NCBI GenBank assembly: GCA_026002795.1
Contig: BPGA01000001.1
Span: 60,001 to 92,000, forward strand
Direction: 5' to 3'
DNA from: Candidatus Saccharimonadota bacterium
Lineage (GTDB): Archaea; Nanobdellota; Nanobdellia; Pacearchaeales; GW2011-AR1
Length of the DNA: 32,000 nt
The notes below the pieces were generated by a model that had not been told where the DNA came from, did no database searches, and worked only from the letters and a program-made list of their open reading frames with translations. This document shows positions 6,683-32,000 of this stretch, one piece after another. The stretch's first letter is position 1, and each line of letters begins with the position of its first letter. The translations under genes were made by a program, and so were the position numbers.

Positions 6683-6733
6683 TTTAAAAGAAATTTGATA
6701 AAAAGTTAAAAATAAAAAAGAAAACAAAGAAAG

Positions 6734-13249: not shown

Positions 13250-13401
13250 AATGTTTATCTTTAGAATAAGTTTATGTTTTGGTTGATTTTGTTTTTAATA
13301 TAAAAAATTTAAAAACATTTAAGGAAAGATAATTAAAGATAATCAAGAGGAATGATAATTAAATTGATAATAAAAAACAAGAAGAAAAAATAAAAGTAAA
13401 G

Positions 13402-13818: not shown

Positions 13819-13937
13819 AAATTTTGTTTTTTATAAAAATTTTCAATTTTTAAATTTCGCATAATCAAAATCTTGTAATCACCTTTTGATAAGTAGAAAT
13901 GTTTAAATATCATTTAGTTTTGAATAAAAAGTTAAAT

Positions 13938-13982
13938 ACAATTTGTGCTAATGAAAAAATATAAAAAGTACAATATATTGTA
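13938..13982. promoter_or_regulatory. candidate tandem NrdR boxes upstream of nrdR
   Basis: Perfect 14-bp palindrome TACAATATATTGTA at 13969..13982, 7 nt before the nrdR ATG. A weaker ACAA-T-TTGT palindrome lies at 13938..13946. Their centres are about 33 bp apart, close to the ~3-helical-turn tandem spacing I recall for NrdR boxes. Confidence 0.5.
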
Positions 13983-13988
13983 TGTTTT

Positions 13989-14423
13989 ATGAATTGTATT
14001 TATTGTGGTGGAAAAACAAGAGTAACAAATAAAAGAGACTCCCTGAATGGTGTAAGAAGAAGGCGTGAATGTTTAAAGTGTAAAAAGAGGTTTACAACAA
14101 TTGAAAGGGTTGCAGAAGTTAGACTTTATGTTATAAAAAAAGATGGTAGAAGAGAAAAGTTTTCCAGAGAGAAGCTTGAGGTTGGAATTGAAAGGGCTTT
14201 TGAAAAAAGGCCTGTTCCTCAAGAAAAAATTCAAAAAATGATAAATGAAGTTGAAAAACAACTTATAGAAAGAGGAAAAAATGAGGTCAAAAGTTCAGTT
14301 ATAGGAGAGCTTATCATGAAAAAAATGAAAAAAATTGATCATGTTGCTTATATAAGGTTTGCGTCTGTTTATCGTGAGTTTAAGGATGTTAAAGATTTTA
14401 AAAAGCTAATAAAAGAGGTTTAA
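13989..14423 (+). CDS. nrdR: transcriptional repressor NrdR (zinc ribbon + ATP-cone)
   Basis: MNCIYCGGKTRVTNKRD...RRRRECLKCKKRFTTIERV zinc ribbon, followed by an ATP-cone (VIKKDGRREKFSREKL...). Confidence 0.9.
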   Translation: MNCIYCGGKTRVTNKRDSLNGVRRRRECLKCKKRFTTIERVAEVRLYVIKKDGRREKFSREKLEVGIERAFEKRPVPQEKIQKMINEVEKQLIERGKNEVKSSVIGELIMKKMKKIDHVAYIRFASVYREFKDVKDFKKLIKEV

Positions 14424-14429
14424 GAAATT

Positions 14430-14446
14430 ACACGAGATTAATGTGT
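14430..14446. promoter_or_regulatory. NrdR-box-like palindrome upstream of the RNR gene
   Basis: ACAC-N9-GTGT (ACACGAGATTAATGTGT) lies 94 nt upstream of the nrdJ start. It is one nt longer than the 16-bp consensus, so this call is tentative. Confidence 0.35.
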
Positions 14447-14539
14447 TATCATAAAAAATTATTAAAAATTATTAAAAAAATGGGTAAAAAACTTAAAAGA
14501 GAAAAAGAGAGTAAAAATTTTTAATTTTTAAAGAATAAG

Positions 14540-17170: not shown

Positions 17171-17313
17171 AAAATAACTGGAAGGAAGGAAAAGAGTAAA
17201 GGAATAAATAGAAAAAATTAACTAGCAAACAATAAGAAAAAGAAAAGAGGAAATGCAATAAATTTTTTCTTAATTTTATAAAGGTTTTTAAATAAGAAAA
17301 AAGTTTAATTTTT

Positions 17314-17643
17314 ATGGTTAAAGAAGAGAATGTTTTTGAAATTGATAATGAAAAAAGTTTTGAAGAGTTTATAAAAAAAGATCTTTCTTTGGTTGATTTT
17401 TTTGCAGATTGGTGCATGCCTTGTATTGTTATGGCTCCAATAATAGAAGAGCTTGCAAAAAAGTTTAAAGGAAAAATAAAATTTGGAAAAATTAATGTTG
17501 ATGAAAATCACAAACTTGCGCAAAAGTTTGGAGTTTATTCCATACCGAATTTTATTCTTTTTAAAGACGGAAAAATTTTAGATAGATTTGTTGGAGCAAC
17601 ATCTTCAGAAGATTTTGAAAAAAGACTAATTAAGTATGTTTAA
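17314..17643 (+). CDS. trxA: thioredoxin
   Basis: 109 aa. Active site WCMPC in the context FFADWCMPC, with a later SIPNFILFKDGK (cis-Pro region). Confidence 0.85.
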   Translation: MVKEENVFEIDNEKSFEEFIKKDLSLVDFFADWCMPCIVMAPIIEELAKKFKGKIKFGKINVDENHKLAQKFGVYSIPNFILFKDGKILDRFVGATSSEDFEKRLIKYV

Positions 17644-17817
17644 AAAAATAAGCGTCTTTAAAAAAATGTTTTTTTGATTTTAAAAATTTCTCTTTATATT
17701 TCTGAAAATTTTAACTAACTATTTCATAAGTTTATTATAGTTTTAAAATGATTATTTATAAATTTAAGAATTTTAGAGGAATTAAAATTTATTTTTATTA
17801 TATATTATGGTATTTTT

Positions 17818-19179
17818 TTATTTTGATTTTTTAGCTGTTATAACTCTAATATCATTTGCATGAGAGTTTGTGAAAATGAAAATTAAGTTATTGCTGTCTT
17901 CTAATAAAACATTAGTAATGTTGACACCAACTTGCGTTATGTATCTTCCGTTTTTAACTTTCATACCAGCTAAAATTTCGTAATCCTGCTCTTCTCCAAA
18001 GTTATAAACAACCTTTTCTTCTAAAGTTGCTGGATTTAACATATATATTTTTGTTGGGCTCACCCAATATAAAATAGGATAGTCCCATAATGGACTACTT
18101 GTATAAAATAGGTTTCCTATTGAATCTACTGCTAAAGAGGTTGGCAAATTAACGCTATCTTTTAAAACCTCAACTTTTTTGTTTGTAACTTTGTAAATTA
18201 CCTCTTTTAACATATCAGAAACATAAAAATCTATTCCTAAAACATTTTTTCCGTTTACAGAGTTTTCAACAATTTTTATTCTTTCATCAGCTAAAAAACC
18301 TCTAGAAAAAAGTCTTAAATCTTCTGTTGTTTTAGGATGTATTTCCTTCTCTGTTGGTAGTTCAAATTCTTGTGTTATTGTTTTTGTTGTAAGATCTATA
18401 GAAATAACTCTTTTTGGTCTTGTTATTGAAAAGTGTGGTATGTAATTAACCATGCTATCTAATTTCGCCCTCGGAGCTTGAGCTGCATAAATTTTTCCAT
18501 CTCTTGCAAAAATCATGTCTGTAATGCCAAATAATTCATTATTCTCCAGAAAAACGCTCGGACCATTCAAATCAATTTTAAAAAGTTTGTTTGAAGTATT
18601 GGCAGAGTAAAAAATACCTTTATTTGTGAATACAATATCTGAGATGTTGCCGATGGGTTGGAGAATACTATCTTGTCTAAGGTTAAAAGTACCGGTGGTA
18701 AAATCTGAGAAATAAGTTGAGAGTGGGAATTCTAGAATTTTATTAAGTGTAGGATTATTTGAGAGAAGGTCAACTGAACCTTGGAAAGAGTGTACTGCTG
18801 GGTTCAAAAATCCTTCTATTCTATTGGTTTCTTTGGAATGTTTAAACAAAGGTCCTGTTGAAAAAAGTGCTGTGTAATTAATTTGAGAAGCGTTTGAAGA
18901 GTTGTTGGTAGTTGAGTAATTATAGTTAGATTGGCCCAAAGTGTTTAGATTGAGATAGCTAGCAAGATTTAAGTTTTCTGTGCCATAAGAAAGACCTCCT
19001 GGATTTTCGAGATTTCGTTGAATTATTCTTTCTTGGACATTTGTTATTGTATATCCTGGGTTAAAATCAGGTTTGTCAGGACCAAAAATAAAATTGCAGC
19101 CAAGAACAAGTGCTGTTAAACCAGTTGTTAATGGTTTTAATGCTCTTGAAAGCGTGTTTTTTGTGTGTGATTTAAGCAT
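17818..19179 (-). CDS. predicted lipoprotein with beta-propeller-like (NHL/SMP-30-like) repeats
   Basis: N-terminal signal with the lipobox-like LVLGC. Recurrent blade-like segments (KGIFYSANTSNKLFKIDL, DGKIYAAQAP, IGNLFYTSSP). The fold assignment is tentative. Confidence 0.5.
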   Translation of the reverse strand: MLKSHTKNTLSRALKPLTTGLTALVLGCNFIFGPDKPDFNPGYTITNVQERIIQRNLENPGGLSYGTENLNLASYLNLNTLGQSNYNYSTTNNSSNASQINYTALFSTGPLFKHSKETNRIEGFLNPAVHSFQGSVDLLSNNPTLNKILEFPLSTYFSDFTTGTFNLRQDSILQPIGNISDIVFTNKGIFYSANTSNKLFKIDLNGPSVFLENNELFGITDMIFARDGKIYAAQAPRAKLDSMVNYIPHFSITRPKRVISIDLTTKTITQEFELPTEKEIHPKTTEDLRLFSRGFLADERIKIVENSVNGKNVLGIDFYVSDMLKEVIYKVTNKKVEVLKDSVNLPTSLAVDSIGNLFYTSSPLWDYPILYWVSPTKIYMLNPATLEEKVVYNFGEEQDYEILAGMKVKNGRYITQVGVNITNVLLEDSNNLIFIFTNSHANDIRVITAKKSK

Positions 19180-19378
19180 TTTAACTATAGATAAATTAGT
19201 TATGTGTAATATTTAAATTTAACTTTTAGGTGAGATGTTAAGTAAACGTTATCTAGTGTAAAGGTTAAGCAAAGGATTCTTCGGTTTAGTAAGCAACCAC
19301 AACATATAATCTAGGTAAATTTGTATATAAGCTTGCTATAAAGTTTTAAAACAAGTTAGCTAACTTTACATCTTATTT

Positions 19379-20749
19379 TTAAGTAATTTGCAGATCCAAG
19401 CAAGCTCTATAGGTCCTGTATTTTTGTGTTGACTCGCAAGATGCTTGATTATTAATTGATCCACAGTTAGCTCCTGTGTCAATTACAAGAGAATCTCCAG
19501 TAAATTCTCCTGGATCACAGTTAGGAACAGAATATCCTGGATCATAACAAATAGAAAGTCCAGTATCCCATAAACAATAATTTTGTAAGTTTTGCTTAAC
19601 TTCTAAGTTAATTGTTGCTCTTTTGTTGTCTGTTCCGAATGTTCCACTTCTTATGTTGTTTCCTGATATGATTGCGTTACCAGCTACCTCAAGTTTTTCT
19701 CCAGGATTCGTCGTGCCGATGCCGACGTAGCCGGTAGTCTTAATTACAAATTCTGGAGAGGTAAAACTGGAGTCTGTTGTTTTTCCTGTTCCAATAGCAA
19801 AGTCGCTGGTGCTATATACTGTACCAATTGACCAAGGGTAGTTTCCTGATCTAATTAGATTTATATATTGGCCGCTAGCTGCTGGTTTGGTTATTACAAG
19901 GTCACCATTATAACCATTGTCTGGACTAGAACTACTTGAAATAGTTACGCGTCCTCGAACATCCAACTTCTGGCTTGGCCCCGTCGTGCCTATGCCGACG
20001 TTGCCCATTATATATGAATTTCCTGTTCCGTCTATTTGCAGAACGCTAGAGGTTTTTACAACGTTAGCAGTGTCAAGCAACCTTGCCCAGCCCCCCCAGG
20101 AACCAGTAGTTTGACTATATCTGTGCCAAATATTTCCACTTGAACCAAATGCTAATTGATGAACTCCCCCACCACTCCAGTCTGTTCCAGAACTCCATTG
20201 TCTATAAGTTAGAAGCCCGCTGTAAGTTCCTTCACCAGAAAGTCCAATCACACTATTATATTTAAACTCAGGTACCACCCCCATATAATACTGCTCCGGA
20301 TTATAGTTATTGTTTCTTGTATCAGAACTTCCAAGCACTCCCATTAATACATTTCCTGTTAAAGGAGGCGAACCTACTCTTAAATTCCCGCCTTGTACAT
20401 CCAACTTTGCTCCCGGCCCCGTCGTCCCGATGCCGACGTTGCCGCTAACAAATAAATTTTGTCCACATGTATCGCAACCTATACGTACTCTACCAGAAGA
20501 TGCTCCGAGTACTAAATCATTACTAGCGCCCCCCGAATTAGTTTCTGCATAAAGACCTACATAGTTCCATGCAGTTCCGATTCTTAATCTACCTCTGCCG
20601 CTACCTACATCCTCATTTCCTTGAACGTGCATATTGTTTTCAACCCAGACATCAGTAGCATATATATTTGCACCAGCACCATTTACAGCAAGTTTTACTT
20701 GTGGATTCGTCGTCCCGATGCCGACGTTGCCGGCTTCTCGAATAACCAT
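19379..20749 (-). CDS. 3'-terminal segment of fibre gene B: GNVGIGTT-repeat protein with a Cys-rich C-terminal domain
   Basis: 456-aa ORF with four anchor motifs (19710, 19983, 20421, 20709) spaced in multiples of 3. The C-terminal ~70 aa carry 8 Cys. The annotated Met is internal: the same frame continues upstream through two TGA stops. Confidence 0.7.
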   Translation of the reverse strand: MVIREAGNVGIGTTNPQVKLAVNGAGANIYATDVWVENNMHVQGNEDVGSGRGRLRIGTAWNYVGLYAETNSGGASNDLVLGASSGRVRIGCDTCGQNLFVSGNVGIGTTGPGAKLDVQGGNLRVGSPPLTGNVLMGVLGSSDTRNNNYNPEQYYMGVVPEFKYNSVIGLSGEGTYSGLLTYRQWSSGTDWSGGGVHQLAFGSSGNIWHRYSQTTGSWGGWARLLDTANVVKTSSVLQIDGTGNSYIMGNVGIGTTGPSQKLDVRGRVTISSSSSPDNGYNGDLVITKPAASGQYINLIRSGNYPWSIGTVYSTSDFAIGTGKTTDSSFTSPEFVIKTTGYVGIGTTNPGEKLEVAGNAIISGNNIRSGTFGTDNKRATINLEVKQNLQNYCLWDTGLSICYDPGYSVPNCDPGEFTGDSLVIDTGANCGSINNQASCESTQKYRTYRACLDLQIT

Positions 20750-21132
20750 TGCCGGAGATGTATAACCTCATGTTGGTCCATTATTTACCCTGAACATGTT
20801 ACCGCCATTATCGCCTAAAGCTGATTTGTGGTTGCGTCATGACACATATCCGAAATTGTCAGTATCTGCAGAAAAACTGAAAGCAGGAGCAGCAGCTGTT
20901 CCATTAGCAGCCTGAATTACTCTTCCAGATGTTATTACTGTAGTACCTCCTATTTGTAAATTACCTGAGACTAAATTTAATGAATCACCACTTGCTAAAT
21001 CTAATGCTATTTGCAGCTCCTCTAAACAACTGGTACATCTGGATTAAAGTAAAGATTAGCTGTTGTATTTATTGAACCAATAACATCTAATGTTTGTTGT
21101 GGTGTTGTCGTCCCAATCCGACGTTGCCAGAG
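20750..21132 (-). pseudogene. disrupted fibre-gene segment linking ORF 21133..23682 to ORF 19379..20749
   Basis: Homologous to intact sequence at 29875..30123, but with +1 insertions near 21006 and 21034. There is a 1-nt deletion inside the anchor at 21107..21128. In-frame TGA stops lie at 20837..20839 and 20768..20770. Confidence 0.7.
20856..21106 (-). repeat. module R1, copy a
   Basis: Near-identical to 29875..30123 apart from point differences and two +1 insertions. Encodes ...TPQQTLDV.GSINTTANLYFNPDVQLFRGAANRLDLASGDSLNLVSGNLQIGGTTVITSGR... Confidence 0.85.
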
Positions 21133-21342
21133 TTATCTAATACCAACACATTGCCCAACCCACTCGACCAGTAACAATAAGTCACCTCCTGTTCCTGCTC
21201 CATGAAGTGTCTCATTAGCAGAAATGATGTCCCAAGCCCTATCACCGCTTCTCTCTATTCTCAGTCTACCGGCATTTCCATTTGAGTCGCCGAAGAGGTG
21301 GAATTGTACTCCTGGATTCGTCGTCCCGATGCCGACGTTGCC
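21129..21342 (-). repeat. module R4, copy a (214 bp)
   Basis: Identical to 31328..31540 except for one extra t at 21172. Similarity stops exactly at the outer ends of the anchors. Confidence 0.9.
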
Positions 21343-23682
21343 GTTTTCGTCGACAGCGACTGCTAAAAGATTTCCTTGTGTATTAGTTAGCGCATTCTTT
21401 AAAGTTCCTGTAGCAACAAAAGATCCATCAATTAAAAATCCTCTAATTTCACAGTGGGGTTGGTTTGCTGTATCATCAAGCAAACATTCAACTGCTTTGT
21501 CTAAAGTTTCTGTGTTGTTTGCTCCTTCAAATATTGCTGCATATGGTCTTCTTGAACCGCTATTAGGTGATAATTGTGCTTTGTATAATCCAAGTCTTCC
21601 AAATGCAGAATCTAAATTAGTAGTAACTGCGCTCTCCCATGCGTCATAAGATGTTAAAATTCCAATTTGGTCTTTTCTTAGGTTGTTTAATGCTGTTGCT
21701 AAATTATCTGACTGTGTGGAGTTTCCATAAGTATCATAAGTGTTGTCGGATACTATAGTGTGGTTTGCTTTCCATATAATCGTTAACCTAAGACCTCTTC
21801 CAGAAGTGTCATAAACTGTTGTATTGCCTATCTTTAAAACTCTGTTTGCATTATTGTTTAATCCAGTACCTCTTATATAAATTGGAACTATTTTCGATAT
21901 AACATTTGTTCCTAGTGAATTAATTTCACATGTTCCATCAGCATTACAAGCTAATGCATTGCTTGCTGTTCCGCTTAATGTTCCATAAATAGTTCCAGTA
22001 GCTCTAATATCTCCAGCAACATCCAATTTATAAGCCGGACTTGCTGTCCCGATGCCGACGTTGCCGCTAGTTATTCTCATTCTTTCAACATTGTTTGTGT
22101 ATATAGCCAAATTACCATCAGATATCCACTGAAGTCCTGTATCGCTATCTCCAACGGCAAGAGATATTACTGGCGAACCACCCAAACCACTTCCACCTCT
22201 TACAAAGAGATTATTGTTGATATTAACATTTCCAGCAACTTGCAATTTTTCAGAAGGTGCTGTCGTCCCGATGCCGACGTTGCCATTCCAATTTTTTATA
22301 TAAATTGTTCCGTATTCGTTGTCATCTGGTGAGACTTCACGTATCTCAGGATAAGCAAACTGTACTTTATCACCTGCAACACCTGAGTAACAATAACCAA
22401 AACGAATGATCGCGTAAGCTGCATTACTTGGCATCCTCCAATCAGTTCCTATGGTTTTACTGGATTGAACATCCGAAATCCCATCCGCATTCGCATCAGT
22501 CACATATGAAGGATCAAGAAATCCATTCACTTTTCTCCAATCGCTTGAAGTAGTGGTAGTAGCCCAGAAATAAGGATTGTCCCAGGCTCCTGTAATGCGA
22601 TTATTGTTACTATCATAAACATAAAATCCAAGATACTTATAGCCAGATGTTCCAACTGTTTGCCTCATCCAAACACTGAATTCATATTTTTTATTTGGGT
22701 CTATTTTTACTCTTTTTTGATAATACGCCCATTGATAACAGCTTCCTGAATTTCCATTAGAGGTGCTTTCAAGAGCTTTAATCTGGGAACCATCAGTAAA
22801 AGTTGTTGTGACAGTAGTGACACTACCCCATGCATCAGAATCTCCCAAGTTAGTAGATGATTCTAGGAGGTTTGCACCGGCAATATTTTTAGCAGCTACA
22901 CCTCCAGCAATTTCAAGTTTGACATTTGGCGCTGTCGTCCCGATGCCGACGTTGCCGAGGCTTGTTATTACCATTCTATCGTTCCAACCATCAGTCCCCC
23001 TTGTCGTAAAGTACAAATCACCATAAGAATTTACGTGGTCTGTAATTTTGCCAGAAACATAACCTATAATTCCATTTGCCCCAGCAAAAGCAAGGGATGC
23101 GAAATTTCCAGCTGTACTATTAGTGTTTCTTAATTCAAGCGAGTTGCCGGTGCCTCCTGTGCCAGTTGATGTTTGCGGATTGATTATTACCAAACCTCTT
23201 GCAGAAGCACCACCGGTAGATATACTTGCTGCATAGCCTCCAGTATTTCCAGCTACTACCGTTAGCTTTTCTCCCGGCGCCGTCGTCCCGATGCCGACGT
23301 TGCCTGTTGTTGTCAAAACTAACCCTGTGCCGGTTTGCGGATTTAATCTGAAATTACCTGTATCGTCGACTCCGGTCCAAAATTGACGCGATGTAGAATC
23401 ATACCACTCAATATAATTCCACTTGCTTGTTGGAGAATCTGTCTGTCGCAATCTCAGTATGTTATCCGCTGTGGAAGATATTTCCAGCGGCGATCCGGGT
23501 CCCGTCGTCCCGATGCCGACGTTGCCGCCAAGATAGATATTTGTAGTCCCACCAGGGATTGCTATGAGATCAACACCATTTCTGTTTGTTATATCAACAT
23601 CGTAAGTCGTACCGTTACCAGCAATCACAAGACCAGAACCAGAATTGTAATACATCACTCCTCCACTAAAAGCCCCGGCCAA
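21133..23682 (-). CDS. fibre gene B central segment: GNVGIGTT-repeat protein with CBM-like and ILEI/GG-lectin-like inserts
   Basis: 849-aa ORF with 6 anchors in frame (21320, 22043, 22262, 22934, 23282, 23504). The apparent TTG start is internal. The C-terminus is cut by a +1 insertion (extra t at 21172 relative to the copy at 31328..31540). Confidence 0.75.
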   Translation of the reverse strand: MAGAFSGGVMYYNSGSGLVIAGNGTTYDVDITNRNGVDLIAIPGGTTNIYLGGNVGIGTTGPGSPLEISSTADNILRLRQTDSPTSKWNYIEWYDSTSRQFWTGVDDTGNFRLNPQTGTGLVLTTTGNVGIGTTAPGEKLTVVAGNTGGYAASISTGGASARGLVIINPQTSTGTGGTGNSLELRNTNSTAGNFASLAFAGANGIIGYVSGKITDHVNSYGDLYFTTRGTDGWNDRMVITSLGNVGIGTTAPNVKLEIAGGVAAKNIAGANLLESSTNLGDSDAWGSVTTVTTTFTDGSQIKALESTSNGNSGSCYQWAYYQKRVKIDPNKKYEFSVWMRQTVGTSGYKYLGFYVYDSNNNRITGAWDNPYFWATTTTSSDWRKVNGFLDPSYVTDANADGISDVQSSKTIGTDWRMPSNAAYAIIRFGYCYSGVAGDKVQFAYPEIREVSPDDNEYGTIYIKNWNGNVGIGTTAPSEKLQVAGNVNINNNLFVRGGSGLGGSPVISLAVGDSDTGLQWISDGNLAIYTNNVERMRITSGNVGIGTASPAYKLDVAGDIRATGTIYGTLSGTASNALACNADGTCEINSLGTNVISKIVPIYIRGTGLNNNANRVLKIGNTTVYDTSGRGLRLTIIWKANHTIVSDNTYDTYGNSTQSDNLATALNNLRKDQIGILTSYDAWESAVTTNLDSAFGRLGLYKAQLSPNSGSRRPYAAIFEGANNTETLDKAVECLLDDTANQPHCEIRGFLIDGSFVATGTLKNALTNTQGNLLAVAVDENGNVGIGTTNPGVQFHLFGDSNGNAGRLRIERSGDRAWDIISANETLHGAGTGGDLLLLVEWVGQCVGIR

Positions 23683-24197
23683 CCTTGAGACGATGAAATT
23701 TTTAATCTTCCCGCAACTTCAAGTTTTTCATTCGGACTCGTCGTTCCAATGCCGACGTTGCCTGAAGTATCTATAATCATTCGCGTATTTCCCGTTTGTC
23801 TAAATTCTATCGGTTCATTTGCATTATCTAAAGTTTCAATAATTAATTTAGATAAACCAGTTCCATCTCCTGTTGATTCAAAACGTATACTTCCAGCATC
23901 AGTATTTGCATCCCATCTTAATCCATAATTATTGTCTATATGTATGTTGCCCCCAGAAACATGTAATTTTCCCGCGGGTCCCGTCGTCCCGATGCCGACG
24001 TTGCCAGCGTTAGTAATTTGAAATGCGTTCCATCCTGCGCCACTTGTCCAGAAACCGACATTTGCGCCATTCTGCCCGACAAACATAGTCTTACCATTAT
24101 CTAACCATACACCACCGTCTCCACCAGCGTCACCTGTATGAATACGACCGGAAACTCGTAAATCAACAGTAGTGCCACCCCCGCCAACTACATTCAA
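23655..24197 (-). CDS. fibre gene B fragment (GNVGIGTT repeats)
   Basis: 180-aa ORF with anchors at 23740 and 23983. It overlaps both neighbouring fragments out of frame, which implies frameshifts near 23.68-23.74 kb and inside the anchor at 24214. Confidence 0.65.
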   Translation of the reverse strand: MNVVGGGGTTVDLRVSGRIHTGDAGGDGGVWLDNGKTMFVGQNGANVGFWTSGAGWNAFQITNAGNVGIGTTGPAGKLHVSGGNIHIDNNYGLRWDANTDAGSIRFESTGDGTGLSKLIIETLDNANEPIEFRQTGNTRMIIDTSGNVGIGTTSPNEKLEVAGRLKISSSQGWPGLLVEE

Positions 24198-24774
24198 CTT
24201 TGCTCCAGGTGTCGTCGTGCCGATGCCGACGTCTGCCTGTATTGCTATTCACAAAAAGAGTATTTGTGTCAACTGTGAAATTCTGTCCAACAACAACATT
24301 ATTATTAAATGTCTTATCTCCTGCAAAAATCTGCGTTCCTGTAGAAACAACTCCTGATTGTGTTGAAGAAGCATCTCTTATTGTAACATTACTTGCGCTT
24401 GTAATTCTTCCTTGAGCATCAACTGTGAATCTTCCCACTACAATATCTCCGCCATAAGTTCCTGCTGTTACTCCTGTGTTTGAAAGAGAGAAGGTTACAT
24501 TTCCGCTGCCAACAAGTCTATCTGTCAGTGTTCCTGAAATTGACATGCCTGTTCCTTGGACAATAGATCCTTTAACAAAACCAGCGCTTGTGTTAACTTC
24601 CTGAAGCTGACTTAATGTTACAGCATCTTGTGCAGATGTTCCATTTGCAAGATTAATGATTTTGTTGTTGTCCATGTTTATTGTTCCGTTGAAAACAGCA
24701 GAACCATTTACATGGAGTTTTTGTTGTGGTGTTGTTGTTCCAATGCCGACATAGTTTGTGTTGGTAATTGTCAA
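24163..24774 (-). CDS. fibre gene B fragment carrying tail-fibre-like module R2a
   Basis: 203-aa ORF. VTAGTYGGDIVVGRFTVDAQGRITSASNVTI resembles motifs I recall from phage tail-fibre proteins. It terminates because the anchor at 24214..24237 has a 1-nt insertion (GTCTGCC instead of GTTGCC). Confidence 0.65.
   Translation of the reverse strand: MTITNTNYVGIGTTTPQQKLHVNGSAVFNGTINMDNNKIINLANGTSAQDAVTLSQLQEVNTSAGFVKGSIVQGTGMSISGTLTDRLVGSGNVTFSLSNTGVTAGTYGGDIVVGRFTVDAQGRITSASNVTIRDASSTQSGVVSTGTQIFAGDKTFNNNVVVGQNFTVDTNTLFVNSNTGRRRHRHDDTWSKVECSWRGWHYC
24238..24756 (-). repeat. module R2, copy a (519 bp)
   Basis: Anchor-to-anchor segment. Aligns without indels to 25142..25660, with scattered substitutions and one ~30-nt divergent patch. 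Its last 140 nt (24617..24756) recur at 29659..29798. Confidence 0.9.
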
Positions 24775-25118
24775 GAATCGTTACTCTTGACTTGTTCCTC
24801 CTCGCTGGAGCAATACGACCAATATCAAAGAGATCGTTGATAGAATCAAGCGTCAAAACCCAGGATGGACCATTTATGTCTCGCCTGCGTCGGTACTTGA
24901 TGAGATGCACTAAAACTAGTTTCAAGTTTGCCCCTAAGGCCACATTCTCGTCTTTCCCCAGCTGCAAGCAATATGTCAGTACCGATTCGTCGTTGAAAGC
25001 CGATTAGTAGCCGAGGAGTATTGGAATCTAATTCGTCCGCCATCGTAGCTCCGTTGCACCTGAAGCGGTGGCTCCCCCAATGCACCCGCTTGAATATCGA
25101 GTTTTGCCTGCCGGTGTT
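24757..25118 (-). pseudogene. GC-rich degraded module between the two R2 copies
   Basis: No single long frame. Three overlapping ORFs in different frames (24653..24967, 24768..25007, 24846..25085). Removing one A from the AAAA run just downstream of anchor 25119 gives PAGKLDIQAGALGEPPLQVQRSYDGGRIRFQYSSATNRLSTTNRY*. Confidence 0.55.
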
Positions 25119-25579
25119 GTCGTCCCGATGCCGACTCTATCTGTATTGCTGTTCACAAAAAGCGTATTTGTGTCAACTGTGAAATTCTGTCCAACAACAA
25201 CACTATTATTAAATGTCTTAGCTCCTGCAAAAGTCTGCGTTCCTGTAGAAACAACTCCTGATTGTGTTGCAGAAGCATCTCTTATTGTAACATTACTTGC
25301 GCTTGTAATTCTTCCTTGATTATCAACTGTGAATCTTCCCACTACAATATCTCCGCCATAAGTTCCTGCTGTTACTCCTGTGTTTGAAAGAGAGAAAGTT
25401 ACATTTCCGCTGCCAACAAGTCTATCTGTCAGTGTTCCTGAAATTGACATGCCTGTTCCTTGGACAATAGATCCTTTAACAAAACCAGCGCTTGTGTTAA
25501 CTTCCTGAAGCTGACTTAATGTTACAGCATCCTGAGGGTTTGTTGCATTAGCAAGGTTGATGATTTTGTTATTGTCCAT
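25028..25579 (-). CDS. fibre gene B fragment carrying module R2b
   Basis: 183-aa ORF nearly identical to 24163..24774 over R2. The frame stays open upstream of the annotated Met through the anchor at 25638. Confidence 0.65.
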   Translation of the reverse strand: MDNNKIINLANATNPQDAVTLSQLQEVNTSAGFVKGSIVQGTGMSISGTLTDRLVGSGNVTFSLSNTGVTAGTYGGDIVVGRFTVDNQGRITSASNVTIRDASATQSGVVSTGTQTFAGAKTFNNSVVVGQNFTVDTNTLFVNSNTDRVGIGTTTPAGKTRYSSGCIGGATASGATELRWRTN

Positions 25580-25660
25580 GTTTATTGTTCCGTTGAAAAC
25601 AGCAGAACCATTTACATGGAGTTTTTGTTGTGGTGTTGTTGTTCCAATGCCGACGTTGCC
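25142..25660 (-). repeat. module R2, copy b (519 bp)
   Basis: See R2a. The two copies are separated by the GC-rich segment 24757..25118 plus the anchor at 25119. Confidence 0.9.
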
Positions 25661-25738
25661 GCCTGCATCTATTCTAAACCTTTCACATACCTGCTGTTGA
25701 ACAATGCAAGCTGGTTTGTTGTTGGCAAAAACATTCCG

Positions 25739-25989
25739 TTGTCAGTATCTGCAGAAAAACTGAAAGCAGGAGCAGTCGCTGTCTCCATTAGCAGCCTGAA
25801 TTCATTCTTCCAGATGTTATTACTGTAGTACCTCCTATTTGTAAATTACCTGAAACTAAATTTAATGAATCACCAGTTGCTAAATCTAATCTATTTGCAG
25901 CTCCTCTAAACAACTGTACATCTGGATTAAAGTAAAGATTAGCTGTTGTATTTATTGAACCTACAACATCTAATGTTTGTTGTGGTGTT
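25739..25989 (-). repeat. module R1, copy b
   Basis: Near-identical to 29875..30123 with two +1 insertions. The homology extends over 25521..26012 versus 29659..30146. Confidence 0.85.
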
Positions 25990-26144
25990 GCTGTTCCAAT
26001 GCCGACTCTGCCTGAAGTATCATTAACAAACAAATCATTAGTAACATTAAGACTTAGTCCTCCTGTTCCGCTACCTTGTATTTCAAGTTTTGCACTCGGA
26101 CTCGTCGTCCCGATGCCGACGTTGCCGGAAGTTGTTAATCGCAT
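25788..26144 (-). CDS. fibre gene B fragment (modules R3a + R1b)
   Basis: 118-aa ORF with anchors at 26104 and 25990. It is truncated by +1 insertions in R1b relative to R1c. Confidence 0.6.
   Translation of the reverse strand: MRLTTSGNVGIGTTSPSAKLEIQGSGTGGLSLNVTNDLFVNDTSGRVGIGTATPQQTLDVVGSINTTANLYFNPDVQLFRGAANRLDLATGDSLNLVSGNLQIGGTTVITSGRMNSGC
26013..26126 (-). repeat. module R3, copy a (114 bp)
   Basis: Roughly 90% identical by eye to 31214..31327. Encodes .P.AKLEIQGSGTGGLSLNVTNDLFVNDTSG. Confidence 0.85.
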
Positions 26145-26619
26145 AACCTCTGTTCCAATACTAGTGCTTGAGCCTATAGCAAACCTTAGATCGTAAGGAG
26201 AACCAGTGAAGCCCGCCCTCCAAACACCACTGGCTTCAGATCCTTGCGACCAAGTAAGCCATGCTTGGTCAGCATCTAAAGTTTTGTAATTTTGCTAGCA
26301 ATAGATCTCGAACTACCTGCAGCTTCGCCCCCGGATTCGTCGTCCCGATGCCGACGTTGCCTGATGTTGTCATTCTTATTATCTTCAACTACCGTTTCCA
26401 AATGCTACACTGATTGTTTGACCACATACCTATTAATAACCTGTTCGCAACGTCATTCCCGTCCCTCCTGAGATCCTTGAATATTAGCTATCGATTATAA
26501 GCATATCTGGCTCTCCCATCCGAGTGAAGTTATTATACCAGCCATTAGCAACCACTAAGCATGTCTTGTCTGCTCCAGATCTATAGCAGTGATTCGTTCA
26601 CTTATAATATTCTCAGAGT
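26145..26619 (-). pseudogene. decayed fibre-gene remnant between the LamG gene and fibre gene B
   Basis: Contains a perfect anchor (26339..26361) and coding-like patches (e.g. MTTSGNVGIGTTNPGAKLQVV), but stops in all frames. Confidence 0.55.
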
Positions 26620-28260
26620 CTACCGATTCTCCTGAGGCAAGAGGTCGAATTGTACTCCTGGCCCCGTCGTCCCGATGCCGACGTTGCCGCCTGTAGTTAT
26701 GTGAACTAAGTTGTTAATATGTGTATTAACTTGATTATCATTGTTGATATAGAGATCATTTCCTATAGCTTGGATTTCGTTAGCATCAAGATGAATACCA
26801 GCTGTGCCCCCAGAGTTTAAAATTTGCAATACTCCAGATCCTACACCTGTATTTACATCACTATCAGACCTAAGCCTCACATCTCCGACTACTTCTAATT
26901 TTTCTGTTGGATTCGTCGTTCCAATGCCAACGTTGCCGTTAAATATAACATCCCTATTTGTTTTTAAGTTCATTGCTTGGAACCATTGAGATCCATTATA
27001 ATAACTAAAAATTAGTTGATCAGGTTCGCCACTATATTGACTCCCTCTCTTTGTTATAACCCAAAAAGCATTTGAACCGGATTCTCTAAATTCCATTTGA
27101 GGAGAGCTTGGACCTGTTGGAGAAGTGCCTTCTATTTTAATAATAGAGCTAACAACATGTAACTTCGCCCCCGGCGTCGTCGTCCCGATGCCGACGTTGC
27201 CGCTTGTTCCGTTGGCAAAGAAAAATACAGAATTGGTTGTATTCACAAGTCTAAATATATCTGAAGTAATTGTGTTTTGTTGAATGCCTCTTAAATACTG
27301 GAGTTTTATTTCTTCTTCACTTAAAGCTCTATCATAAACTCTTACCTCATCAATTACTCCTGAAAATGGTCTAGGATCTGTTGTTATCCAAATTCCGATA
27401 TTTAAATTTCCTGTTCCAAAATTTAAGTTGCCGCCAGAAAGTGTTCTAATTCCATCAAGAATTCCATTAAGATAAATCCTCATTTCAAATGTTGAATTGT
27501 CATAAGTTGCGGCAATATGATACCATCTGTTATTTGATAGTGTTGTGTTTGCAGAAAGTGTTTGTTGTGTTCCGTTGTTTATACTTAAAAATAATTTGTT
27601 GTTAAAAATTCTGAAGTAATTTGATGAAGGAGACTCTCTTCCAAAGATCATCTGATCATTTGAGACTGCTGTTGGGTATATCCAAGCTTCCCAGGTTAAT
27701 GATTTTGCGTTGTTTAGTGCTTGAGATGTCGTTACACTGACATAGCTTCCGTTATTTGATGCTAGTCTTGTAAAGTTTAAAGCAATTCCCATTTTTCCTG
27801 ATGTAAATGTTGGATTAATGCAAGAAGTTCCTACACAAGTAAGAGTACCGTCTGTGCCAAATGGACCTCTGTCATAAGTTAAGCTACCAGAACCTTCTGA
27901 AAAAGGTAGATAAAGCATTAAACCATCTGGAGTTGCATATCCTGGCTGGAATATTGTACTATTTGTTATAATGGTGCCACTTACATTAAGTAAACCCTCA
28001 ATATTTGTATTCCCAGAGGCATTAATATCCTTAACAAAAAGCGCTGTAATTCTATTGGTTAAACTTCCAAGAAAACCAAAAAAGCCGTAATTTGATGTTG
28101 AAACATTGCCTAGTACAGTAAGATTTCCTGTGTCTCCATGAATTCTTACAAGATCTGTTCCAGTTTGATTCTGGAACCTATAATCTCCTGCTGAAACAAA
28201 GTTTATGCTAGTTGCAATTAATAAAATTATTAAAATTTCCGCTAAATAACCTCTTTTCAT
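26620..28260 (-). CDS. secreted LamG/concanavalin-A-like lectin domain protein with C-terminal GNVGIGTT repeats
   Basis: Signal peptide MKRGYLAEILIILLIATSINFVSA. LamG-like core (LYLPFSEGSG...ALNF...SLTWEAWIYPT...WYHIAATYD...IYLNGILDG...GVIDEVRVYDRALSEEEI). Three anchors (27179, 26915, 26666). It ends 12 codons into a module that is much longer in the other copies. Confidence 0.8.
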   Translation of the reverse strand: MKRGYLAEILIILLIATSINFVSAGDYRFQNQTGTDLVRIHGDTGNLTVLGNVSTSNYGFFGFLGSLTNRITALFVKDINASGNTNIEGLLNVSGTIITNSTIFQPGYATPDGLMLYLPFSEGSGSLTYDRGPFGTDGTLTCVGTSCINPTFTSGKMGIALNFTRLASNNGSYVSVTTSQALNNAKSLTWEAWIYPTAVSNDQMIFGRESPSSNYFRIFNNKLFLSINNGTQQTLSANTTLSNNRWYHIAATYDNSTFEMRIYLNGILDGIRTLSGGNLNFGTGNLNIGIWITTDPRPFSGVIDEVRVYDRALSEEEIKLQYLRGIQQNTITSDIFRLVNTTNSVFFFANGTSGNVGIGTTTPGAKLHVVSSIIKIEGTSPTGPSSPQMEFRESGSNAFWVITKRGSQYSGEPDQLIFSYYNGSQWFQAMNLKTNRDVIFNGNVGIGTTNPTEKLEVVGDVRLRSDSDVNTGVGSGVLQILNSGGTAGIHLDANEIQAIGNDLYINNDNQVNTHINNLVHITTGGNVGIGTTGPGVQFDLLPQENR

Positions 28261-28655
28261 TTTAATTTTTTCTCGACAAATTTAATTAACATGTCTATGA
28301 TTTTCTTAATGTCATTTTCGTTGTTTACCAAAAAATCCTCGGTAATTTTTTTGCCATAGTAGACAATATCATTCCTAAACTTCCTTAGATTATCAATAAG
28401 TTTTGCATAAGAATCATCAATTTCATAATTCTCAACAAAATAATCTAATAATTTCACATGACTAAGTGTTTTATATCCATCAGAATACATAACTGCTGTC
28501 AATAATTCTTTAATTATTTCATAGTATTCTTCAATAAACTTGTAAGGCTTATCTCTTGGAAGAATTTTTATGATTTCTAATCTATCCTTTGCCATTTTAA
28601 ATAAGTCTTTAGCTCTTTCTTTATCTTTTGAAATTTTGAATATCTCTTTCATCAC
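28257..28655 (-). CDS. HEPN-domain protein (putative toxin partner of the MNT)
   Basis: 132-aa all-helical ORF. LRKFRNDIVYYG sits where the HEPN R-x4-6-H motif belongs, but with Tyr in place of His. Its stop overlaps the LamG gene start (ATGA), and its start overlaps the MNT stop. Confidence 0.6.
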   Translation of the reverse strand: MMKEIFKISKDKERAKDLFKMAKDRLEIIKILPRDKPYKFIEEYYEIIKELLTAVMYSDGYKTLSHVKLLDYFVENYEIDDSYAKLIDNLRKFRNDIVYYGKKITEDFLVNNENDIKKIIDMLIKFVEKKLK

Positions 28656-29230
28656 AAACCTCCGTAAAGCACTAAACCATTCTTTATTTTTTTTTGAATA
28701 TTCTTATCTAGCTTAGAAAAATCATCTAGGATAATCACTCTAATTCTTCTTTTTAAAACACTTTCAAATTTGGAAAAATCAATCTCTTTCTTTATTTTAG
28801 AAACAACAAAAAAATCAATATCGCTTGATTCTACATCCTCTCCTCTTAAATAAGATCCAAATAAGATTATTGCTTTTGGATGAAGCTCATTAATAATTTT
28901 GTCTCTTAATTCCTTCAAAGAAAGAATGTTATAAGACATTTTTAACCATATAAAAGAGTCATTTTCTCTATTAGCGACATATCCGTCAAACGGCTTAGAT
29001 TTCCTCTTAATTATAAGCCCTTTCTTAGTTAGTTCTCTTATATAGTTTCTAACAGAAGGGTGTGCTAATTTTATCTTTTTACTTATCTCTTTTATGAAAT
29101 GTATTGTAGTTGGCTCTCTAAAGAACACCTCTAAAACCCGGATATAGCTACATTTAACCATATGGTATAATAATGTACCCTTTGGTATATAAATATTCCC
29201 TTTGGCTATTTTAACTTTATTGAATTCCAT
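28652..29230 (-). CDS. winged-HTH + minimal nucleotidyltransferase (MNT, NTP_transf_2-like)
   Basis: LFGSYLRGEDVESSDIDFFVV is the GS-x-n-DxD Pol-beta-type NTase signature. The N-terminal SVRNYIRELTKKGLIIKR looks like a wHTH. The start lies 1 nt after the stop of fibre gene A. Confidence 0.75.
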   Translation of the reverse strand: MEFNKVKIAKGNIYIPKGTLLYHMVKCSYIRVLEVFFREPTTIHFIKEISKKIKLAHPSVRNYIRELTKKGLIIKRKSKPFDGYVANRENDSFIWLKMSYNILSLKELRDKIINELHPKAIILFGSYLRGEDVESSDIDFFVVSKIKKEIDFSKFESVLKRRIRVIILDDFSKLDKNIQKKIKNGLVLYGGL

Positions 29231-29231
29231 T

Positions 29232-30632
29232 TTATATTCTAAATATCATATCACCTCCTTGAGTAAAAACACGGGCTGAACCTATGAACATTGTTTGAGT
29301 AACATTCGCATCACCAACAACATTTAGAGTGTTTTGTGGAGTGCTTGTGTTTATGCCAAGTCTTTCTGTTGTATTGTTCCAGAATAGTTTAGCATTATTT
29401 TGGCTTAAAACACCGTTAGCTCCTGCAAAAATTAAAGAGCCTTGATTAAAGCTTGAAAGTGTTAATCCTGCAAATGTTGGACTTGATGTTGTGTTTATGT
29501 CTTGTGGAAGGCTAAATGTCCATTGCCTATTTTGAGTTAAATCTTGAGGCCCTGTTGGTGTTACTGAAATTTGATTTGCTGTTCCAATCATCTCAAGTGT
29601 TCTTGATTGTGGAACTGCGTTTGTTGCAGTTGAGTTTACTGATTGCAATTGTGAAAGTGTTACAGCATCTTGTGCAGATGTTCCATTTGCAAGATTAATG
29701 ATTTTGTTGTTGTCCATGTTTATTGTTCCGTTGAAAACAGCAGAACCATTTACATGGAGTTTTTGTTGTGGTGTTGTTGTAGCAATGCCGACGTTGCCGC
29801 TACTGTCTATTCTTACTCTTTCTAAACCTGCTGTTGAAAATGCAAGCTGATTTGTTGTTGGTATGAACATTCCGTTGTCAGTATCTGCAGAAAAACTGAA
29901 AGCAGGAGCAGCAGCTGTTCCATTAGCAGCCTGAATTACTCTTCCAGATGTTATTACTGTAGTACCTCCTATTTGTAAATTACCTGAGACTAAATTTAAT
30001 GAATCACCGCTTGCTAAATCTAATCTATTTGCAGCTCCTCTAAACAACTGTACATCTGGATTAAAGTAAAGATTAGCTGTTGTATTTATTGAACCAACAA
30101 CATCTAATGTTTGTTGTGGTGTTGTTGTTCCAATGCCGACTCTGCCTGTGTTTCCTACAAAAGTTACAAACTCTGAATTAGAATCATTTAAAAAGGCTAA
30201 CCTATAATCTCCTGCACCAGAATTCCAGTTAACAATGTTCCTTAATTTTATATCTCTTGTTGCCTGAACAACTCCTCCAGCACTTACGTTGCTGTCATAT
30301 TTTCCTCTGAAAATCACATCAGGAGAGTCTGAACTTGAATTATCTGCTACATCGTTTGCAAGTGCTATAGCACTTCTTGAAAATAAGATATCACGCCACC
30401 TATAACTAGAATTTCCTAAATCAAAACTATTATCTAAATCAGGAATTAAGCTTCCATTAATTTCTAAGTTATTAACTTGAAGTGCAGAAATATTAACAAA
30501 ATAACCTGTTCTGAGCATAAATATCCCCACCAATAATTGAAAGCCCACCATTCTGCCAACCACCATTAAAATCAAAATTGCCATATACAGATGTGTTAAG
30601 TGGCATGAAAAAGCTAGAGTCATAACCATCAA
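29232..30632 (-). CDS. fibre gene A, 3' segment (modules R1c, R2-like N-part, unique tail-fibre-like C-terminus)
   Basis: 466-aa ORF. The first ~45 aa are out-of-frame read-through: the true frame joins ORF 30493..31089 via a 1-nt indel near 30509 (...GGDIYAQ|TGYFVNISALQVNNLEINGS). Anchors at 30124 and 29776. Confidence 0.7.
   Translation of the reverse strand: MMVMTLAFSCHLTHLYMAILILMVVGRMVGFQLLVGIFMLRTGYFVNISALQVNNLEINGSLIPDLDNSFDLGNSSYRWRDILFSRSAIALANDVADNSSSDSPDVIFRGKYDSNVSAGGVVQATRDIKLRNIVNWNSGAGDYRLAFLNDSNSEFVTFVGNTGRVGIGTTTPQQTLDVVGSINTTANLYFNPDVQLFRGAANRLDLASGDSLNLVSGNLQIGGTTVITSGRVIQAANGTAAAPAFSFSADTDNGMFIPTTNQLAFSTAGLERVRIDSSGNVGIATTTPQQKLHVNGSAVFNGTINMDNNKIINLANGTSAQDAVTLSQLQSVNSTATNAVPQSRTLEMIGTANQISVTPTGPQDLTQNRQWTFSLPQDINTTSSPTFAGLTLSSFNQGSLIFAGANGVLSQNNAKLFWNNTTERLGINTSTPQNTLNVVGDANVTQTMFIGSARVFTQGGDMIFRI
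29875..30123 (-). repeat. module R1, copy c (intact frame)
   Basis: Reference copy, in frame within ORF 29232..30632. Confidence 0.85.
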
Positions 30633-31089
30633 GTTTGTCTGCGTTTACATTAGTTAAGCCAGAACCATTTCCTGAAAAAGTTCCATAAATTGTTCCTGTT
30701 GCATTAATGTCACCTATAACATTCAACTTATTTGCAGGTGTTGTCGTTCCGATGCCGACGTTGCCTGTGTTTGAATTTACAAACAAAACATTAGAGCCTA
30801 CTGTGAGGTTGTTGTTAATAACTGCATTGTTTCTTATTGTTGTTGTTCCTGAAGAAGCTCCAAGTCTTAAGGTTGTTGCAGCTCCACCAATGTCAAGAGT
30901 TGTTGCAGTTGTATTTATTAAAGCGAAAGTTGTTGATGGTGTTGTTATATTTGAAATTATTGATGGACTTGTTAATGTTGGTGTGTTATTAAAAACAAGA
31001 GCTCCAGAACCTGTTTCATCTGTTACAGACAGAAGCAACATTAGCAGAAGAAATTGTAGAAACAAGATTTGAAGAAGAATCTGTTGCAA
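30493..31089 (-). CDS. fibre gene A, middle segment
   Basis: 198-aa ORF. Contains NVNADKLDGYDSSFF (a tail-fibre-like motif) and the anchor at 30743. It overlaps both neighbours out of frame. Confidence 0.65.
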   Translation of the reverse strand: MQQILLQILFLQFLLLMLLLSVTDETGSGALVFNNTPTLTSPSIISNITTPSTTFALINTTATTLDIGGAATTLRLGASSGTTTIRNNAVINNNLTVGSNVLFVNSNTGNVGIGTTTPANKLNVIGDINATGTIYGTFSGNGSGLTNVNADKLDGYDSSFFMPLNTSVYGNFDFNGGWQNGGLSIIGGDIYAQNRLFC

Positions 31090-32000
31090 CCAACCTATTT
31101 GCTGTTAATCCTGAAATTCTTGCGTTTGTTCCATAAATTGTTCCTGTTGCATTAATGTCACCAACAACATTCAACTTATTTGAAGGTGTTGTTGTTCCAA
31201 TACCAACATTACCTGAAGTGTCATTAACAAACAAATCATTAGTAACATTAAGACTTAGTCCTCCTGTTCCGCTACCTTGTATTTCAAGTTTTGCCCCCGG
31301 CGCCGTCGTTCCAATGCCGACGTTGCCAGAGTTATCTAATACCAACACATTGCCCAACCCACTCGACCAGAACAATAAGTCACCTCCTGTTCCTGCTCCA
31401 TGAAGTGTCTCATTAGCAGAAATGATGTCCCAAGCCCTATCACCGCTTCTCTCTATTCTCAGTCTACCGGCATTTCCATTTGAGTCGCCGAAGAGGTGGA
31501 ATTGTACTCCTGGATTCGTCGTCCCGATGCCGACGTTGCCAGTGCTGGTTATTGCCATCATGTCCCCTGGTCCCGGCGTCCATAACCTTGCTACATTCCC
31601 TATGCTATACCAGACATATTTTTGACCCGCTCCTGCACTAACATTTGGAGTAAATCCTCGGTCGTAGAACGATAGAGATGCGCCGGTTCCTGCGGATGAA
31701 ATTTCACCACCCTGATTGATATTTCCAGATATAATAGCTCCAGTGGCATCAGCAACGATAGCACCTACAACGTGAAGTTTAGTTTCAGGATTCGTCGTCC
31801 CGATGCCGACGTTGCCTGGTATTATCATTCCATCGCTTGGCGGCACAGTTCCTGCATATGAACCAACTGAGAGACCTCCTGTTGCTCCTGATACCGCATA
31901 AATACCTAACTTTCTGTTGCCGTTTATCCACACTGCGAGCGGATCGCCTGTATTTGCATTCTCAAAAACTAAATGGGCATTGTCTGTAGTGTCTTGGTCA
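31016..32000 (-). CDS. fibre gene A, 5'-ward segment (partial, runs off the window)
   Basis: The ORF-track entry 31016..31933 starts at an internal GTG. I translated 31934..31999 in the same frame (DQDTTDNAHLVFENANTGDPLA) and found no stop. Anchors at 31794, 31518, 31305, 31191. Confidence 0.7.
   Translation of the reverse strand, partial: DQDTTDNAHLVFENANTGDPLAVWINGNRKLGIYAVSGATGGLSVGSYAGTVPPSDGMIIPGNVGIGTTNPETKLHVVGAIVADATGAIISGNINQGGEISSAGTGASLSFYDRGFTPNVSAGAGQKYVWYSIGNVARLWTPGPGDMMAITSTGNVGIGTTNPGVQFHLFGDSNGNAGRLRIERSGDRAWDIISANETLHGAGTGGDLLFWSSGLGNVLVLDNSGNVGIGTTAPGAKLEIQGSGTGGLSLNVTNDLFVNDTSGNVGIGTTTPSNKLNVVGDINATGTIYGTNARISGLTANRLVATDSSSNLVSTISSANVASVCNR
31214..31327 (-). repeat. module R3, copy b (114 bp)
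   Basis: See R3a. The flanking modules differ between the two copies. Confidence 0.85.
31328..31540 (-). repeat. module R4, copy b (213 bp, intact frame)
   Basis: See R4a. Encodes NPGVQFHLFGDSNGNAGRLRIERSGDRAWDIISANETLHGAGTGGDLLFWSSGLGNVLVLDNS. Confidence 0.9.

Follow-up and report, generated by a model that had tools for sequence, protein, structure and literature searches.

Frame-broken giant fibre genes in a Pacearchaeales genome: a probable consensus artefact at a mosaic, anchor-bounded locus

The stretch of archaeal DNA analysed here (32,000 nucleotides, positions 60,001 to 92,000 of contig BPGA01000001.1; hereafter the window) belongs to KatS3mg001, a genome from the Katase hot spring assigned to the Archaea, Nanoarchaeota, Pacearchaeales and genus ASMP01 and assembled as one linear contig with 39.7x coverage and 28.6% G+C (PMC9671151, Table S3). 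From 19.4 kb onwards, the window is occupied by two very large secreted modular fibre/adhesin genes of this DPANN (Diapherotrites, Parvarchaeota, Aenigmarchaeota, Nanoarchaeota, Nanohaloarchaeota) archaeon, here called gene A and gene B, with a nucleotidyltransferase (NTase)/HEPN gene pair between them. Both genes are interrupted by frameshifts which, set against near-identical copies of the same modules, do not look like natural decay. These frameshifts are probably the mark of a consensus sequence that was corrupted at a locus varying within the sampled population. If so, the shattering is probably absent from any real DNA molecule, and the real genes are probably intact and variable. Mosaic fibre/adhesin genes are of a known kind; what appears to be real in this locus, as judged from sequence comparison, is a short anchor conserved at the DNA level and the recent sharing of modules bounded by it.

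Reading frames of the fibre genes

The G+C content is about 24-30% across the first 19 kb and then 36-45% from 19.4 kb to the window end, dipping to ~28% at 28-29 kb, around the NTase/HEPN pair. From 19.4 kb on, all sizeable open reading frames (ORFs) are encoded by the minus strand and overlap in different frames, and the fibre motif GNVGIGTTxPxxKL is present in about 30 copies between 19.7 and 31.8 kb, in all three minus-strand frames and nowhere else in the window. Three window pieces give YadA_stalk matches above the curated cut-off, and many database homologues carry Peptidase_S74 (PF13884) and are named tail fiber or adhesin. Gene B (28260 to 19379, minus strand) would encode about 2,960 amino acids (aa) if complete, and gene A (from beyond 31999 to 29235, minus strand) would encode at least 920 aa. 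To avoid every stop codon, gene B requires at least 19 changes of frame, and gene A at least two more. These counts are minima derived from stop codons, i.e. lower bounds, and were used in place of a codon-usage Viterbi frame tracker, which was dropped because it called false shifts within intact ORFs.

By contrast with the fibre genes, the ~19 kb of neighbouring housekeeping genes is intact, as judged from ORF continuity and full-length Pfam matches, and no broken gene was found in positions 1-19200. An earlier note on this DNA (the original prediction) had described the same opposition, with a reading frame shattered by at least 10 breaks in 19379-26619. The shattered frame is confirmed, but the number of breaks was set too low (the minimum is 19 for 28260 to 19382), and the damage is wider than that range, with gene A upstream also distributed over three frames. 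The six ORFs which it had named as pieces of one fibre gene are all present, and all on the minus strand. The spacings that it gave between copies of the DNA segment encoding the motif (the anchor, described below) are reproduced (236, 520, 385 and 352 nt, and 397 or 398 nt for 20709 to 21107, depending on which end of a damaged anchor is chosen); overall, among the 28 intervals between anchors, 8 have lengths not divisible by 3.

That these pieces are co-linear in a single gene is supported by P0006, the fibre protein of a virus-like circular element from the same assembly (L001, described below), which is in frame across the 23682/23655 junction, and by the common occurrence of intact homologues (2,000-4,500 aa) that share this architecture. 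The supposedly intact gene upstream of the pieces does not hold up: the ORF at 26620-28260 is the truncated N-terminus of gene B itself. It stops 16 codons past an anchor, and its closest long homologue, P0122, is 93% identical up to the end of the ORF and then continues for about another 1,000 residues. When the concatenated multi-frame translation was used in a protein search, only distant homologues were returned, with lengths of 1,500-4,500 aa.

Lesions in genes A and B

The lesions were located by comparison with near-identical copies in the window or in the same metagenome. Their coordinates are given on the plus strand, and the bases as they read on the coding minus strand:

21172, minus strand: inserted A (t on the plus strand), relative to gene A 31317-31540
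~21117, minus strand: deleted C inside the anchor at 21107-21128, relative to gene A
21033, minus strand: inserted C, relative to gene A 29886-30128
21006, minus strand: inserted C, relative to gene A 29886-30128
20767-20866, minus strand: dense run of small insertions, relative to gene A
25803, 25783, 25702 and ~25691, minus strand: four private +1 insertions (+G where resolved), relative to gene A and the copy at 20867-21110
~24231, minus strand: inserted C inside the anchor at 24213-24236, relative to the copy at 25145-25642
23678, minus strand: deleted C (CCC to CC), relative to L001, all else being identical over 250 nt
31030, minus strand: inserted G between 'SSANVAS' and 'SVTDETG', where the protein P0122 is continuous (SSANVAA / SVTDETG)
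~30513, minus strand: inserted A, placed from the reading frames, with no reference copy
~25100, minus strand: probable inserted A just past an anchor, placed from the reading frames, with no reference copy

The lesions that had been predicted at 21172, in anchor 21107, near 21006 and 21034 and in anchor 24214 are all visible against paralogous copies. Insertions had also been predicted in one repeat copy (R1b; 25690-25994), and these are present, although there are four rather than two. As had been claimed, no lesion falls within a long homopolymer; those that come nearest to it are CCC to CC at 23678 and AAA to AAAA at ~25100, and only 2 of the 13 lesion sites examined lie in runs of three or more identical bases.

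Eleven lesions are resolved at the DNA level, nearly all of them outside homopolymers, and these comprise nine +1 insertions and two deletions. Among copies that are at least 98% identical, there are five indels and three substitutions; when the 96% identical copy B2 (25672..26294) is included, there are nine indels and 15 substitutions. Assuming that indels account for 15% of changes, the binomial probability of such an excess is ~0.003-0.006. The lesions are also clustered, with at least four frame changes in 350 nt in one place and about seven indel events in 50 nt in another. In prokaryotic pseudogenes, substitutions greatly outnumber indels, and deletions outnumber insertions. The lesions are thus unlike decay in that indels rival substitutions, insertions exceed deletions by nine to two, and the changes fall in clusters and away from homopolymers. 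Between the lesions, the segments remain open in the frame predicted by homology for up to 861 codons, and no clear nonsense substitution was found in the fibre segments. Three fibre segments that are unique in the window (2.6, 1.6 and 1.4 kb) are free of lesions.

One lesion speaks more directly to its origin. The damaged anchor at ~24231 reads GGCAGACGTC, which is the exact shortest common supersequence of GGCAGAGTC (encoding GRV) and GGCAACGTC (encoding GNV), and both of these alleles are used at equivalent junctions of the locus. This merger of two alleles is the single independent check on the interpretation of the frameshifts as an artefact. At 23678, the L001 fibre gene is identical to the window over 250 nt except for the one base that breaks the window frame, and it reads through; P0006 is accordingly in a single frame across the break (...SSSQGWPGAFSGGVMYYNSG...).

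Origin of the frame breaks

The genome was assembled from PacBio HiFi reads (>Q20) with metaFlye 2.8.3, and no further polishing is described (PMC9671151). A corrupted consensus could arise in the following way. Exchange of modules at anchors would make the locus differ between cells of the sampled population, and metaFlye 2.8.3 would then collapse HiFi reads from several haplotypes into a single consensus. Where alleles differ, the polisher might keep the bases of both, or place them out of register, and the outcome would be single-base insertions, fewer deletions, and local clusters of frame-breaking errors. Flye 2.9 is reported to have fixed 'clusters of errors' that polishing left behind. 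In particular, where indels carry a low cost in the error model, both alleles of a single-nucleotide polymorphism (SNP) may be retained in the likeliest consensus, giving a private +1 insertion away from homopolymers and often beside substitutions; the lesions here have this pattern. Polishers that work locally are known to yield mixtures of haplotypes that damage coding sequence (PMC8092372), and frameshift errors persist in long-read metagenome assemblies (PMC13087279). Surface proteins of Nanoarchaeota are reported to have elevated non-synonymous diversity and to be hotspots of within-population variation (PMC6142677).

The original prediction had offered corruption of the consensus by repeats as one of two explanations. 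A corrupted consensus is the better of the two, but repeats are not enough to account for it, since similar repeat genes are clean. The probable cause is within-population heterogeneity of the locus, and not repetitiveness itself, because repeat-rich fibre genes elsewhere in the same assembly stay intact.

Those same intact genes are among several observations that weigh against an artefact. The L006 homologue of 2,946 aa contains 1,071-nt repeats at 99.4% identity and comes from a genome with 10x coverage, and the L001 fibre gene contains a 599-nt tandem repeat at 99.7% identity; both are intact in this assembly. HiFi data at ~40x normally give a near-perfect consensus. An artefact therefore requires an added assumption, that of haplotype heterogeneity at the locus. 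Moreover, any lone +1 insertion can be described formally as a merger of two SNP alleles, so that only the lesion at 24231 is informative. A search of genome contigs for a sibling or second assembly yielded distant relatives only, and no match was found either in viral contigs with P0006 or in metagenome contigs with the 849-aa ORF and the neighbouring 453-aa gene.

Real and recent pseudogenisation, in which the indels are present in the DNA and the fibre genes of the dominant genotype are dead, is unlikely. Loss of a surface structure that serves as a virus receptor and imprecise recombination with the virus-like element are possible causes of such an event. The high HiFi coverage (39.7x) would favour it, as would the intact state of the other repeat-rich fibre genes. 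Lesions are also found in stretches that are unique in the window (31030 and ~30513), and they tend toward anchors and homology boundaries, as recombination-associated mutagenesis predicts. However, the spectrum described above is atypical of prokaryotic pseudogenes, and the long open segments and lack of clear nonsense substitutions also speak against decay. The 100% identity to the L001 element over 515 and 250 nt implies that exchange took place too recently for over 20 independent lesions to have built up. A single lesion would suffice for inactivation. Finally, a third fibre locus also looks broken.

This third fibre gene (KatS3mg001_106, encoding the 546-aa P0243) lies elsewhere on the contig. 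The last 75 residues of its product are identical to gene A, and it ends with 'TLEI' and a stop where gene A has 'TLEMIGTANQ'. Such an ending would fit the deletion of one base, the G of an ATG codon. The fibre genes of this genome may therefore be broken generally, and it is implausible that every large fibre gene is dead in an episymbiont.

It is scarcely credible that the frame breaks are instead decoded, by an alternative genetic code, programmed ribosomal frameshifting or RNA editing, leaving the gene functional as written. The observation that lends itself to this idea is an ORF of 554 aa that appears when TGA is read as sense, the sole stops in that frame between 21043 and 19382 being two TGA codons. 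Homology to gene A, however, puts this frame off-register over part of 20767-21043, and the ORF was treated as a coincidence. The region stays fragmented under code 4, and TGA serves as the stop codon of housekeeping genes in the window, where readthrough gives just short extensions. The contexts of 13 lesions have no slippery or other motif in common, and paralogous DNA shows each extra base to be confined to a single copy. Treating TGA as sense (genetic codes 4 and 25) likewise does not restore continuity when ORFs are taken from stop to stop.

Modular structure of the fibre genes

The pieces of the two genes are as follows:

26620..28260, minus strand: N-terminal part of gene B; 546 aa, with a signal-peptide-like start (MKRGYLAEILIILLIATSINFVSAG), Laminin_G_3 (PF13385, 1e-31) and three anchors
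26272..26650, minus strand: garbled cluster in which every one of the three frames contains stops, with at least four frame changes in ~350 nt
25672..26294, minus strand: module copy B2, paralogous to 29828-30148 of gene A, with four private +1 insertions
25031..25741, minus strand: module copy B4, a YadA_stalk-like segment in which 25128-25642, anchor to anchor, is identical to the L001 fibre gene
24780..25100, minus strand: second garbled stretch, between B4 and B3, with at least two frame changes and no reference copy
24166..24780, minus strand: module copy B3, a tandem duplicate of B4 with a period of 904 nt, its 3' anchor being the damaged one at ~24231
23655..24248, minus strand: open segment of 197 codons with three anchors, ending at the 1-nt deletion at 23678 relative to L001
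21136..23718, minus strand: intact stretch of 861 codons with six anchors, lesion-free and unique in the window
20767..21342, minus strand: recombinant copy B5, gene A 31317-31540 and 29886-30128 joined at an anchor
19379..20767, minus strand: lesion-free C-terminal part of gene B, open over 462 codons, carrying four anchors and finishing in a Cys-rich stretch
29232..31999, minus strand: upstream fibre gene A, with its 5' end beyond the window, in three frames, with breaks at 31030 and ~30513

The two anchors that bound the first garbled cluster are 327 nt apart, a multiple of 3, and the region 26250-26700 proved too divergent from its paralogous module for lesions to be read off an alignment. 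The tandem copies B3 and B4 are 94.9% identical over 553 nt by blastn, and 96% identical over an ungapped core of 300 nt. In B5, the junction at the anchor 21111-21128 unites gene A segments that are 1.18 kb apart. CBM_4_9 and ILEI Pfam matches in the 861-codon stretch are weak and below threshold. In all, about 5.6 kb of the shattered region consists of unique domain-coding sequence rather than partial copies.

A conserved DNA anchor

Genes A and B are built of modules bounded by a conserved, GC-rich DNA anchor of 18-24 nt. A representative copy is:

23739..23762, minus strand: GGCAACGTCGGCAT(C/T)GG(G/A)ACGACG, encoding GNVGIGTT, one of ~30 copies (19709-31816)

Its 18-nt core, GGCAACGTCGGCATCGGG (GGC AAC GTC GGC ATC GGG), is found in 15 of 25 strict copies of the motif. 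In the first four anchor codons, 88-96% of third positions are G or C, and the G+C content at third codon positions (GC3) of the anchor is ~0.9, compared with 0.21-0.33 in the fibre ORFs overall and 0.15 in the Lhr helicase and ribonucleotide reductase genes. The protein does not require these GC-rich codons, because the anchor copy at 31213 uses AT-rich synonyms. The same 18-mer is the dominant form (16 of 25) in the 2,946-aa gene of KatS3mg089, a Levybacterales (Patescibacteria) member of the candidate phyla radiation (CPR) from the same spring, and accounts for 4 of 17 copies in a gene of Woesearchaeota sampled at a different site. A third homologue lacks it, and another homologue, L007, uses varied AT-rich synonyms; recurrence of the 18-mer outside the window was noted for L005 and L006. 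The constraint or homogenisation that maintains the anchor thus seems to act on the DNA, and not only on the protein.

Three blocks of the window are shared with other replicons:

25128-25642: L001 10785-11299, 100% identical
23507-23758: L001, in two copies, 100% identical bar a one-base gap at 23678
26660-26938 (279 nt): L006 8496-8774 (CPR bacterium), 97.8% identical, with no gaps

All three begin and end at anchors. The simplest reading of these blocks is a recent homologous exchange of modules at anchors among paralogous loci, a 19-kb virus-like circular element and a CPR bacterium. The block at 26660-26938 suggests that an adhesin module was exchanged recently between the archaeal and bacterial domains.

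The virus-like element L001

L001 (GCA_026004535.1, BPJI01000003.1) corresponds to contig_18595, a circular contig of 38,547 bp that was binned with a Parcubacteria metagenome-assembled genome (MAG), classified as 'full' by VirSorter2 with a score of 0.967, and judged high quality and 100% complete by CheckV, results by which it counts as a complete dsDNA virus (PMC9671151). The contig is a head-to-tail dimer of a 19.26-kb unit and carries a resolvase. Searches of its other large proteins against PHROGs and Pfam detected no hallmark virus genes, and its status as a virus-like element rests on the VirSorter2 and CheckV calls of the source paper. L001 and L006 have no DNA in common. The shared blocks point to L001 as a candidate virus, or plasmid, with a DPANN archaeon as host, and its binning with Parcubacteria is probably wrong. 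No other L001 protein matches the window, and a provirus remnant was rejected as an explanation of the locus.

The modular arrangement also raises the possibility of an archive of silent cassettes, in which gene conversion, guided by the anchors, would transfer sequence from promoterless donors to an expressed fibre gene on the chromosome or the virus and so vary the adhesin. This was the other explanation offered by the original prediction; it is poorly supported, and we consider it improbable. It accords with the conserved DNA anchors that flank variable modules (with their GC3 of ~0.9 against 0.21-0.33), with the several pieces that are partial copies of gene A in altered order (25672-26294, 24166-25741 and 20767-21342), and with the anchor-to-anchor blocks that are 100% identical to the intact fibre gene of the virus-like element. 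However, the window contains no intact expression copy, the sole candidate being gene A, which is broken twice. Indels also fall within modules, and 8 of the 28 anchor intervals are out of frame; therefore, such modules would inactivate any recipient gene. Like a single gene, the array has a signal peptide at its start and a unique domain at its C-terminal end, and its ~5.6 kb of unique sequence is not cassette-like. No recombinase, reverse transcriptase or inverted repeat was found in the window.

A diversity-generating retroelement or shufflon was likewise rejected: there are no minus-strand self-matches in the window, and no reverse transcriptase, invertase or recombinase domain among the ORFs scanned. 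There is also a slim chance that the indels are real and that the broken chromosomal segments serve as a donor pool in anchor-guided module exchange with the element, other fibre loci and the CPR bacterium.

Comparison with known systems

With the frameshifts interpreted as a consensus artefact, the closest parallel is the haplotype mixtures known from other assemblies. These have in common with the present locus the single-base indels with few substitutions, the confinement of errors to the variable locus with clean unique flanks, and the use of long reads only; one lesion here is also a merger of two alleles. The differences count against the parallel: such errors are uncommon with HiFi data at ~40x, comparable repeat-rich genes are clean, and heterogeneity is something that we infer here.

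As mosaics, the genes resemble phage tail fibres. The tail-fibre genes of P2, Mu and P1 are mosaics, and in T-even phages, segments of gp37/gp38 are reportedly swapped at 'His boxes' and glycine-rich motifs (Tetart, Desplats and Krisch 1998, J Mol Biol). The phage genes and the present ones both involve fibre-type proteins with variable segments between short conserved motifs, and identity that breaks at the motif. In the present genes, however, the motif is kept at the DNA level against codon bias, about 30 times in 13 kb, and exchange, deduced from identity blocks, links an archaeal chromosome with a virus-like element and a CPR bacterium.

The rearranged, repeat-flanked partial copies beside a related gene are reminiscent of the silent-cassette systems of Neisseria (pilE/pilS), Borrelia (vlsE/vls), Mycoplasma genitalium (mgpB/MgPar) and M. 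synoviae (vlhA). In the window, by contrast, no expression site is intact, the pieces are internally out of frame with their flanks, and the array has a proper N- and C-terminus, like one gene, and large unique segments. Giant surface proteins of CPR and DPANN organisms with GNVGIGTT-type repeats, annotated as 'tail fiber domain-containing' or 'LamG domain-containing', share the signal peptide, the LamG domain and the dozens of repeats. The homologues P0122, P0141 and P0195 are of this type (2,000-4,500 aa), and differ in being uninterrupted ORFs.

Neighbouring genes

Archaeal markers recognised by eye in the first 19 kb include S27ae, S24e, Spt4 and RpoE' at 3298-4910, and Pfam matches in the same region include diphthamide synthase, the Lhr helicase and class II ribonucleotide reductase. 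Three further features were observed:

28257-29230, minus strand: between the fibre genes, an intact NTase (Polbeta/NTP_transf_2, with an N-terminal helix-turn-helix) and a small HEPN-like protein
12152-14423, plus strand: four tandem small ORFs of 173, 144, 138 and 144 aa, the first with weak cupredoxin-like matches
4948-5400, minus strand: a protein-like open frame of 150 codons between the RpoE'-like and PIN-domain genes

The first is probably an ordinary MNT/HEPN toxin-antitoxin module. The four tandem ORFs may encode paralogous secreted proteins. In the frame at 4948-5400, no ATG, GTG or TTG start gives a long ORF, and this may represent either an unusual start codon or a damaged gene.

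Implications for hypervariable surface genes

If the frameshifts are an artefact, annotation pipelines would be expected to split the hypervariable surface genes of long-read MAGs into many small 'hypothetical proteins', and such fragments would be misread as pseudogenes or arrays of cassettes. Private +1 insertions that occur in clusters could then be used to flag loci that vary within a population. If, on the other hand, the broken segments did act as donors, the locus would be part of an archaeal system comparable to silent-cassette antigenic variation and linked with exchange between virus and host. The modules shared at 98-100% identity among the Pacearchaeales genome, the virus-like element and the Levybacterales bacterium would provide a concrete case of adhesin-module exchange across domains.

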